Part shown: piece after piece, positions 35,356 to 36,108 of the stretch
Position numbering within the stretch: position 1 is the first letter of the stretch
Layout: each line of letters begins with the position of its first letter
Virus record (IMG/VR): IMGVR_UViG_642979322_000011
Source: a virus
Lineage: Duplodnaviria; Heunggongvirae; Uroviricota; Caudoviricetes
Reading direction: 5' to 3' (one strand)
Length of the DNA stretch: 64,000 nt
The notes under the pieces: generated by a model
The model's input: the letters and a program-made list of their open reading frames with translations, nothing else
The model's database searches: none
Told to the model about the DNA's origin: nothing
Position numbers and translations under genes: made by a program

Positions 35356-35574
35356 ATGTACCAGATGGAAAAAATCACAACAGGTGTGTCATACACCACG
35401 TCAGCGGTGGGAACGGGCTACTGGTTCCTGCAGTTGCTGGACAGGGTTTCCCCGTCTCAGTGGGCGGCAATAGGCGTGCTGGGGAGTCTGCTGTTTGGGC
35501 TGCTGACATATCTGACGAACCTGTATTTCAAGATTAAAGAAGACCGGCGTAAGCGGCACGGGGAGAGTAAGCTG
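35356..35574 (+). CDS. S: Class II pinholin (S21-like), no in-frame stop before the endolysin in this sequence
   Basis: [66 protein letters not shown] matches recalled phage 21 S; dual-start motif; reads through at G4 (35560-35563). Confidence 0.7.
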
Positions 35575-36108
35575 ATGAGCAGGAAACTCCGCTATGGTTT
35601 ATCGGCTGCCGTTCTGGCGCTGATTGCCGCAGGTGCTTCTGCGCCTGAAATCCTCGACCAGTTTCTGGATGAAAAGGAAGGTAACCACACCACAGCATAC
35701 CGTGATGGTGCGGGTATCTGGACCATCTGCCGTGGAGCCACCCGGGTGGATGGTAAGCCTGTTATTCCTGGCATGAAGCTGTCGAAGGAAAAATGCGACC
35801 GGGTTAACGCCATTGAGCGTGATAAGGCGCTGGCATGGGTGGAGAAAAACATCAAAGTGCCGCTGACCGAACCCCAGAAAGCGGGGATCGCGTCATTCTG
35901 TCCGTACAACATTGGTCCCGGTAAGTGTTTCCCGTCGACGTTTTACAGACGAATTAATGCAGGTGATCGAAAAGGTGCCTGCGAAGCTATTCGCTGGTGG
36001 ATTAAGGACGGTGGCAGAGACTGCCGTATTCGTTCAAACAACTGTTACGGTCAGGTATCCCGTCGTGACCAGGAGAGCGCGCTGGCGTGCTGGGGAATCG
36101 ACAGATAA
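35575..36108 (+). CDS. R: SAR endolysin (phage lysozyme, R21-like)
   Basis: N-terminal signal-anchor-release segment [15 protein letters not shown] then lysozyme motif [16 protein letters not shown]. Confidence 0.85.

Follow-up and report, generated by a model that had tools for sequence, protein, structure and literature searches.

Does the Stx2a prophage examined here encode its holin and its endolysin as one protein, or does its published sequence merely make it appear so? The window, by which we mean the whole 64,000-nucleotide stretch of DNA that was analysed, holds a single open reading frame at 35281..36108 (+), which is 275 aa long when delimited mechanically. When read from 35356, its biological start (MYQMEKITT), it is a 250-aa frame (35356–36108, +) in which an S21-type class II holin (S) is joined to a SAR endolysin (R): the tail of S runs without a stop codon into MSRKLRYG. 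The original prediction ascribed this read-through to the lack of one base in a run that now has four Gs, with a sequencing artefact as one possible cause. Clarification can be obtained by examining the lysis cassette itself, the position of the missing base, and the corresponding loci in related genomes. The coordinates of the features are collected in Table 1.

Table 1. Features of the lysis region, the one-base differences, and the read-through allele of other genomes (window coordinates unless a locus or accession is given)
Feature	Position	Strand	Remarks
Fused 250-aa frame	35356..36108	+	Deposited as EEC28387.1, 'lysozyme', E. coli O157:H7 TW14588
S, class II (S21-type) holin	35356..35570	+	PF04971; S of VT2-Sakai/933W minus one base
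Lesion	35553	+	AAGGCGG to AAGCGG, −1 frameshift; GG in all relatives (alignments)
G4 run	35560..35563	+	GGGG in VT2-Sakai, 933W, and loci L003–L018; GGG only in L024, L025, and B1_2
R, SAR endolysin, 177 aa, intact	35575..36108	+	Translation identical to VT2-Sakai R; PF00959
ant-like antirepressor, between R and Rz	36379..36948	+	Annotation of relatives; Pfam P22_AR_N
Rz i-spanin	37102..37569	+	PF03245 Phage_lysis; annotation of relatives
Rz1 o-spanin ORF, embedded in Rz	37322–37507	+	Completes the lysis cassette
SASA-family esterase (nanS-p-like) frameshift	34205..34211	+	G7, as against G6 in relatives
One-base indels	1837 (+A), 5275 (−A), 5358 (−T), 6128 (−T)		Relative to 6535WT
One-base indels, continued	34205–34211 (G6 to G7), 35553 (−G), 49474 (+A)		Relative to 6535WT
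GGG allele, B1_2	L026 2345–3097 = NZ_CP074764.1 4209881–4210633
GGG allele, other copies	L024 1174–1926; L025 468–1220

The lysis cassette and the fused frame

The read-through itself was borne out, since both Pfam domains lie in one polypeptide: residues 5–68 of the fused product match PF04971 ('Bacteriophage P21 holin S') over the entire profile (1–64 of 64; E = 2.1e-32), and residues 106–240 match PF00959 (Phage_lysozyme; E = 1.6e-24). The coding position of the deposited protein, EEC28387.1, is 3,607,167–3,607,919 in CM000662.1. As deposited, the holin tail reads RKRHGESKL and is followed by R, and the own stop codon of a class II holin is missing in the window. A tail of the form ...RKAARGE with its own stop codon is present in all of the aligned relatives.

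The window represents the Stx2a prophage integrated beside tRNA-Arg argW in E. coli O157:H7 TW14588 (CM000662.1, GCA_000155125.1); this prophage has been reported at 3,579,351–3,640,522 of CM000662.1 (PMC11688487). TW14588 is a lettuce isolate from the 2006 Taco John's outbreak and was sequenced by JCVI (PMC3359367, PMC11688487), and CM000662.1 is a JCVI pseudomolecule from a 2008-era assembly (PMC11688487; PMC3359367). In the literature on the sequencing of TW14588, Rusconi 2016 gives neither the platform nor a statement on indels for this strain.

The prophage is of the 933W/VT2-Sakai type (Sepvirinae), and its late region is arranged in the order Q, tRNAs, stx2AB, SASA esterase, DUF1378, DUF826, S, R, ant, Rz/Rz1, and terminase. 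The first and the fourth codon of S encode Met (MYQMEK, 35356–35367), and both 68- and 71-aa forms are annotated in databases. The extra residues MYQ bring no added positive charge, unlike those of the S21-71 antiholin form described in PMC9636201. In the Kyte–Doolittle profile of S, one strong segment is centered at residues 40–51 (TMD2), and the Gly/Thr/Ala-rich residues around 9–27 fall under the hydropathy threshold used, as a SAR-like TMD1 might. The R protein has a basic N-terminus followed by a Gly/Ala-rich hydrophobic segment, as in a SAR domain, and its hydropathy peak lies at residues 84–94 of the fusion, namely residues 11–21 of R. Its catalytic motif, read from the translation, is E35-x8-D44-x5-T50, and UniRef names exactly this sequence 'SAR-endolysin' ENLYS_BP933. 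R also retains its own start: a GGAG Shine–Dalgarno sequence, which overlaps the G4 run, occurs at 35562–35565, 9 nt before the ATG at 35575, and both are untouched by the deletion.

Two known systems resemble this cassette. The phages 933W and VT2-Sakai (Sepvirinae, Traversvirus) show the same order of S, R, ant, and Rz/Rz1; the S–R DNA of VT2-Sakai is identical to that of the window at 828 of 829 positions, and the ENLYS_BP933 protein is shared. The window differs from these phages in the absence of one G at 35553, in the lack of a stop codon in S, and in carrying an IS1203 copy ~190 nt after Rz. The other system is that of phage 21, a different phage with homologous proteins: the window S aligns over its full length with the Pfam family derived from the P21 holin S and has Met1 and Met4 like S21 (68/71), and the window R, like R21, has a SAR-type N-terminus and the E-x8-D-x5-T motif. 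The pinholes formed by S21 are heptameric, measure ~2 nm, and collapse the proton-motive force (PMC6116005, PMC9636201). From its family membership, the present cassette would be expected to work as S21/R21 do: the pinholin would accumulate and form ~2-nm channels, the proton-motive force would collapse, the membrane-tethered SAR lysozyme would thereby be released and activated, and the spanins would finish lysis.

Position of the missing base

When the S–R region of the window was aligned with those of VT2-Sakai and 933W, the sole difference was one G absent at 35553: the relatives have CGTAAGGCGGCACGGGGAGAGTAAGCTGATG, and the window has CGTAAGCGGCACGGGGAGAGTAAGCTGATG. The same lone difference was found against 14 IMG/VR contigs and three closed E. 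coli genomes. All of these sequences keep S and R as separate genes; thus, the comparison with 933W-type cassettes that the original prediction had proposed agrees with its view that two separate genes are the normal state and that the loss of one base has fused them. Consistently, an 828-nt query from the window matched VT2-Sakai, Min27, the Stx1-converting phage, and others at 99.9% identity, spanning 829 nt there. The deletion shifts the frame of S after codon 66, and the native TAA (35568–35570) is thereby out of frame. With the G restored at 35553, S ends in ...EDRRKAARGE followed by TAA. In this canonical layout, the TAA, a 4-nt spacer (GCTG), and the ATG of R follow one another, so that S and R are adjacent; the overlap of the two genes that had been assumed does not exist in this phage group.

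The base is therefore missing at a place other than the one originally proposed. The GGGG run does lie at 35560–35563, and the addition of one G to it does bring the TAA back into frame. However, the run is G4 in all of the canonical relatives, and the tail that such a repair would generate, ...RKRHGGE, occurs in none of the aligned relatives, whose tail is ...RKAARGE. In a simulation with G, a +1 insertion anywhere from ~35551 to the stop codon put the TAA back in frame, and therefore a successful repair in the G4 run does not locate the lesion. Accordingly, accurate reads should show GG at 35553 with an unchanged G4, and not the G5 that had been expected. A contraction of G5 to G4, whether by slippage or by a homopolymer miscall, is arithmetically sufficient, and the length of the run does vary (GGG in B1_2, L024, and L025); nevertheless, this explanation is refuted by the alignments, in which 35553 is the only differing site, and we give it practically no credence.

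A structural property of the locus bears on how easily such a frame can arise. The R frame is open over the 60 nt on the 5′ side of the R ATG, and in a simulation any 1-nt deletion within a 57-nt region (the equivalent of 35513–35569 in the window; S codons 54–71) generated a 250-aa S–R ORF. S–R fusions can recur because of this open frame, as a single deletion anywhere in the 57 nt suffices.

Read-through alleles and one-base differences in related genomes

The allele of the window was found nowhere else. In an exact look-up among ~15 billion proteins, the fused protein occurred once, in the TW14588 record only, and the canonical S and the canonical R each occurred in ~1000 contigs. An 86-nt junction query against 5,426 complete E. 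coli genomes gave 702 matching records from 697 genomes, with a best span of 87 nt, and none of the 702 matched the window junction at 100%. An exact search with the 44-mer of the window yielded no occurrence in IMG/VR, where the canonical 45-mer occurred 14 times, and none in the species-representative genomes (GTDB).

A different read-through allele does exist. When the fused protein served as a query against 5.8 billion protein clusters, 961 homologues were obtained, and among the best 120 of them only one other two-domain protein (P0046, 250 aa) was found; three further candidates (P0047–P0049) were rejected as S–R fusions, being internal duplications or mis-assemblies of R. In the DNA encoding P0046, AAGGCGG is intact and GGG replaces GGGG, so that S is shifted by −1 within its last codons, has the tail RKAARESKL, and joins R at ...ESKL-MSRKL. 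This allele occurs in the drafts PQRH01000087.1 and ABCYIA010000105.1 and in the closed bovine genome B1_2, in which, according to PGAP, the holin is a pseudogene and the lysozyme has an intact gene of its own. The three copies come from three separate projects and are 1–55 positions apart over 3–4 kb. Because three independent and slightly diverged assemblies share it, this allele is evidently real and inherited. Both it and the window have lost one base and thereby show a 250-aa holin–lysozyme ORF, but the base lost differs (in the G4 run and at 35553, respectively), and the B1_2 allele belongs to a different Stx-like prophage type (ANT PF03374; 94% DNA identity). The G4 run is thus able to lose a base, although this is not the event in the window. 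It follows that relatives naturally lacking the stop codon, which the original prediction had named as a finding that would refute it, do exist, yet they are rare, being B1_2 and two draft genomes.

Positions 1–20000 of the window match the closed genomes 6535WT, 6535NalR, and M1300706002 at ~100%. The strain 6535 wt, a human isolate from Minnesota, belongs to the same 2006 Taco John's outbreak, and its genome was closed by combining PacBio and Illumina data (PMC9234449). Its copy of the same prophage is canonical: in the PGAP annotation, the 'class II holin family protein' has 71 aa and the lysozyme, encoded separately, has 177 aa. Over positions 1–51294, the window and 6535WT differ by no substitutions beyond a ~180-bp patch (four inside it), by seven one-base indels, and by one IS1203 insertion.

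All of the seven indels are run-length changes (A1 to 2, A2 to 1, T3 to 2, T1 to 0 beside T6, G6 to 7, G2 to 1, and A1 to 2, in the order of Table 1), and the window is the lone outlier at each of the seven sites when compared with at least three independent sequences. Four of them lie in conserved genes, namely two in that for a DNA-ejection protein, one in the SASA esterase gene, and one in S, as is expected for random errors in DNA that is ~90% coding. The indels at 5275 and 5358 break the gene of a 378-aa 'phage DNA ejection protein' in a P22-like remnant upstream of argW. The G7 frameshift, 1.3 kb upstream of the S–R lesion, splits the esterase gene into ORFs of 499 and 134 aa; this variant was found in 3 of 603 complete E. 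coli genomes (RM19259, 21B8, and 93_161312).

Since 6535WT itself carries errors, each of the seven sites was polarised with at least three sequences, and the use of 6535WT as the sole gold standard was rejected. This genome has 26 one-base indels of its own at L019 11345–13239 (NZ_CP089032.1), corresponding to 62037–63946 of the window, within an 8.4-kb LPD5-domain gene. In the window, this segment is 100% identical to VT2-Sakai and the 8.4-kb LPD5 ORF is open, whereas PGAP flags the 6535WT gene as frameshifted. These indels are probably unpolished long-read errors, and the LPD5 region may be repeated between the Stx2a prophages of 6535WT.

Two further differences were observed in the same comparison. 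The ~180-bp patch, at 32474–32656 between stx2B and the esterase gene, is identical to VT2-Sakai but differs from 6535WT and 2013C-4361, although these two are elsewhere the nearest relatives of the window; it is either a small recombination mosaic or the result of cross-assembly with the second (wrbA) Stx2a prophage of TW14588. The other is the IS1203/IS629 copy at 37756–39065 (1310 bp), which has intact terminal inverted repeats and a 3-bp target duplication (ATC at 37753–37755 and 39066–39068) and sits in codon 4 of a Rha-family regulator gene. It is missing from 6535WT, and 2013C-4361 has a copy at a different site. The insertion, which separates the lysis genes from the terminase genes in the late operon, is genuine and could exert a polar effect on the morphogenesis genes. 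Because the insertion with its target duplication is genuine, TW14588 and 6535WT have diverged to some extent in reality.

Origin of the fused frame and its consequences

The apparent fusion very probably goes back to an error of base calling or assembly in CM000662.1, the TW14588 record of 2008. Differences that consist only of indels, and only of run-length changes, are what errors of pyrosequencing or of a low-coverage consensus typically produce, and real short-term divergence in E. coli consists mainly of substitutions. Errors of an older assembly best explain the window because seven indels stand against no substitutions within one outbreak. The uniqueness of the allele and the canonical state of the same-outbreak isolates point in the same direction, and the artefact that the original prediction had considered is thus supported. 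That the missing base reflects an error and not a mutation is our best reading of these observations. Under it, one G of the dinucleotide in AAGGCGG would have been under-called at 35553, and this would shift S into the R frame, in which the 60 nt preceding the R ATG contain no stop codon; the S gene of the actual phage would end in ...RKAARGE-TAA, and R would be translated separately from its own GGAG and the ATG 4 nt downstream of the stop codon. This explanation falls short of certainty because GG to G is a change in a short run, a less typical site of error than a long homopolymer. In addition, the −1 read-through at a neighboring position in another lineage shows that such mutations occur and persist in prophages.

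According to the main competing explanation, the argW Stx2a prophage of the lettuce isolate TW14588 has recently undergone a real −1 frameshift mutation. The allele is present in the deposited record, and the independent GGGG to GGG allele is known from three separately sequenced copies, including that of the closed genome B1_2. The 57-nt region offers a sizeable target for deletions. The genuine IS1203 copy in the late operon is compatible with a prophage that may already be decaying, and the strain has other Stx prophages (PMC11688487). The topology of a chimera would also be self-consistent, with the C-terminus of S inside and the SAR domain N-in/C-out (deduced from PMC9636201). Against these points, the same-outbreak isolates are canonical (PMC9234449), the allele was found in no other genome among the complete E. 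coli genomes, IMG/VR, and the species representatives, and the lesion is one of seven window-specific indels opposed to no substitutions, a ratio that is hard to obtain by mutation. We therefore regard a real deletion as unlikely. A wider claim, namely that the TW14588 deletion is real and that, together with the B1_2 allele, it reveals covalent pinholin–SAR-endolysin chimeras as a recurrent product that resident Stx prophages tolerate, or that even works in them, seems to us quite improbable.

It is also highly improbable that S and R constitute an evolved or programmed single polypeptide. The open frame and the two independent read-through alleles are all that speak for it. On the other hand, the stop codon is kept in ~700 E. 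coli genomes and in the phage records that were inspected, a second two-domain protein was the only one among the best 120 of the 961 homologues, and the B1_2 holin is a pseudogene according to PGAP. The alleles are singletons or confined to one small lineage, with no sign of selective maintenance. A plain indel suffices, so that a recoding signal is unnecessary; programmed frameshifting or recoding was set aside, as the canonical relatives have two genes and a stop codon.

If the deletion were real after all, S would be made only as a three-TMD chimera from both of its starts, with the last five residues of its tail changed. The chimera would consist of the pinholin TMD1–TMD2, a charged cytoplasmic linker, the SAR domain, and the periplasmic lysozyme. 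Free R would continue to be translated because its own GGAG and ATG are untouched. The holin function would be altered or lost; the lysis defect that the original prediction considered probable is, however, not a given, because C-terminal GFP fusions of the S21 pinholin (S21-68-GFP) have been used for the study of pinholes (PMC9636201). TW14588 also carries a wrbA Stx2a prophage and a Stx1a prophage (PMC11688487), and these two might supply lysis genes in trans. Since a lysis gene of one of the two Stx2a prophages would be hit, the deletion could bear on the release of toxin and phage. The cytotoxicity of TW14588 supernatants is comparable to that of EDL933 supernatants (bioRxiv 10.1101/2022.09.30.510420), an observation that does not discriminate between the artefact and a real deletion. 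Such chimeras, if they did exist, would amount to a natural experiment on whether triggering survives when the cytoplasmic tail of a pinholin is linked to its own endolysin.

The lysis cassette in question is of a well-known kind, and under the preferred reading, that of an error in the record, the 'fusion' is most probably no feature of the biology. The main value of the result is then a caution, as CM000662.1 is still a reference for the Taco John's outbreak clade. The seven one-base indels in the 64-kb window alone lead to false pseudogenes and to the false 'holin–lysozyme fusion' EEC28387.1, which has been propagated into protein databases. Comparisons of gene content or pseudogenes that use CM000662.1 will over-call the differences in the Stx2a prophage.
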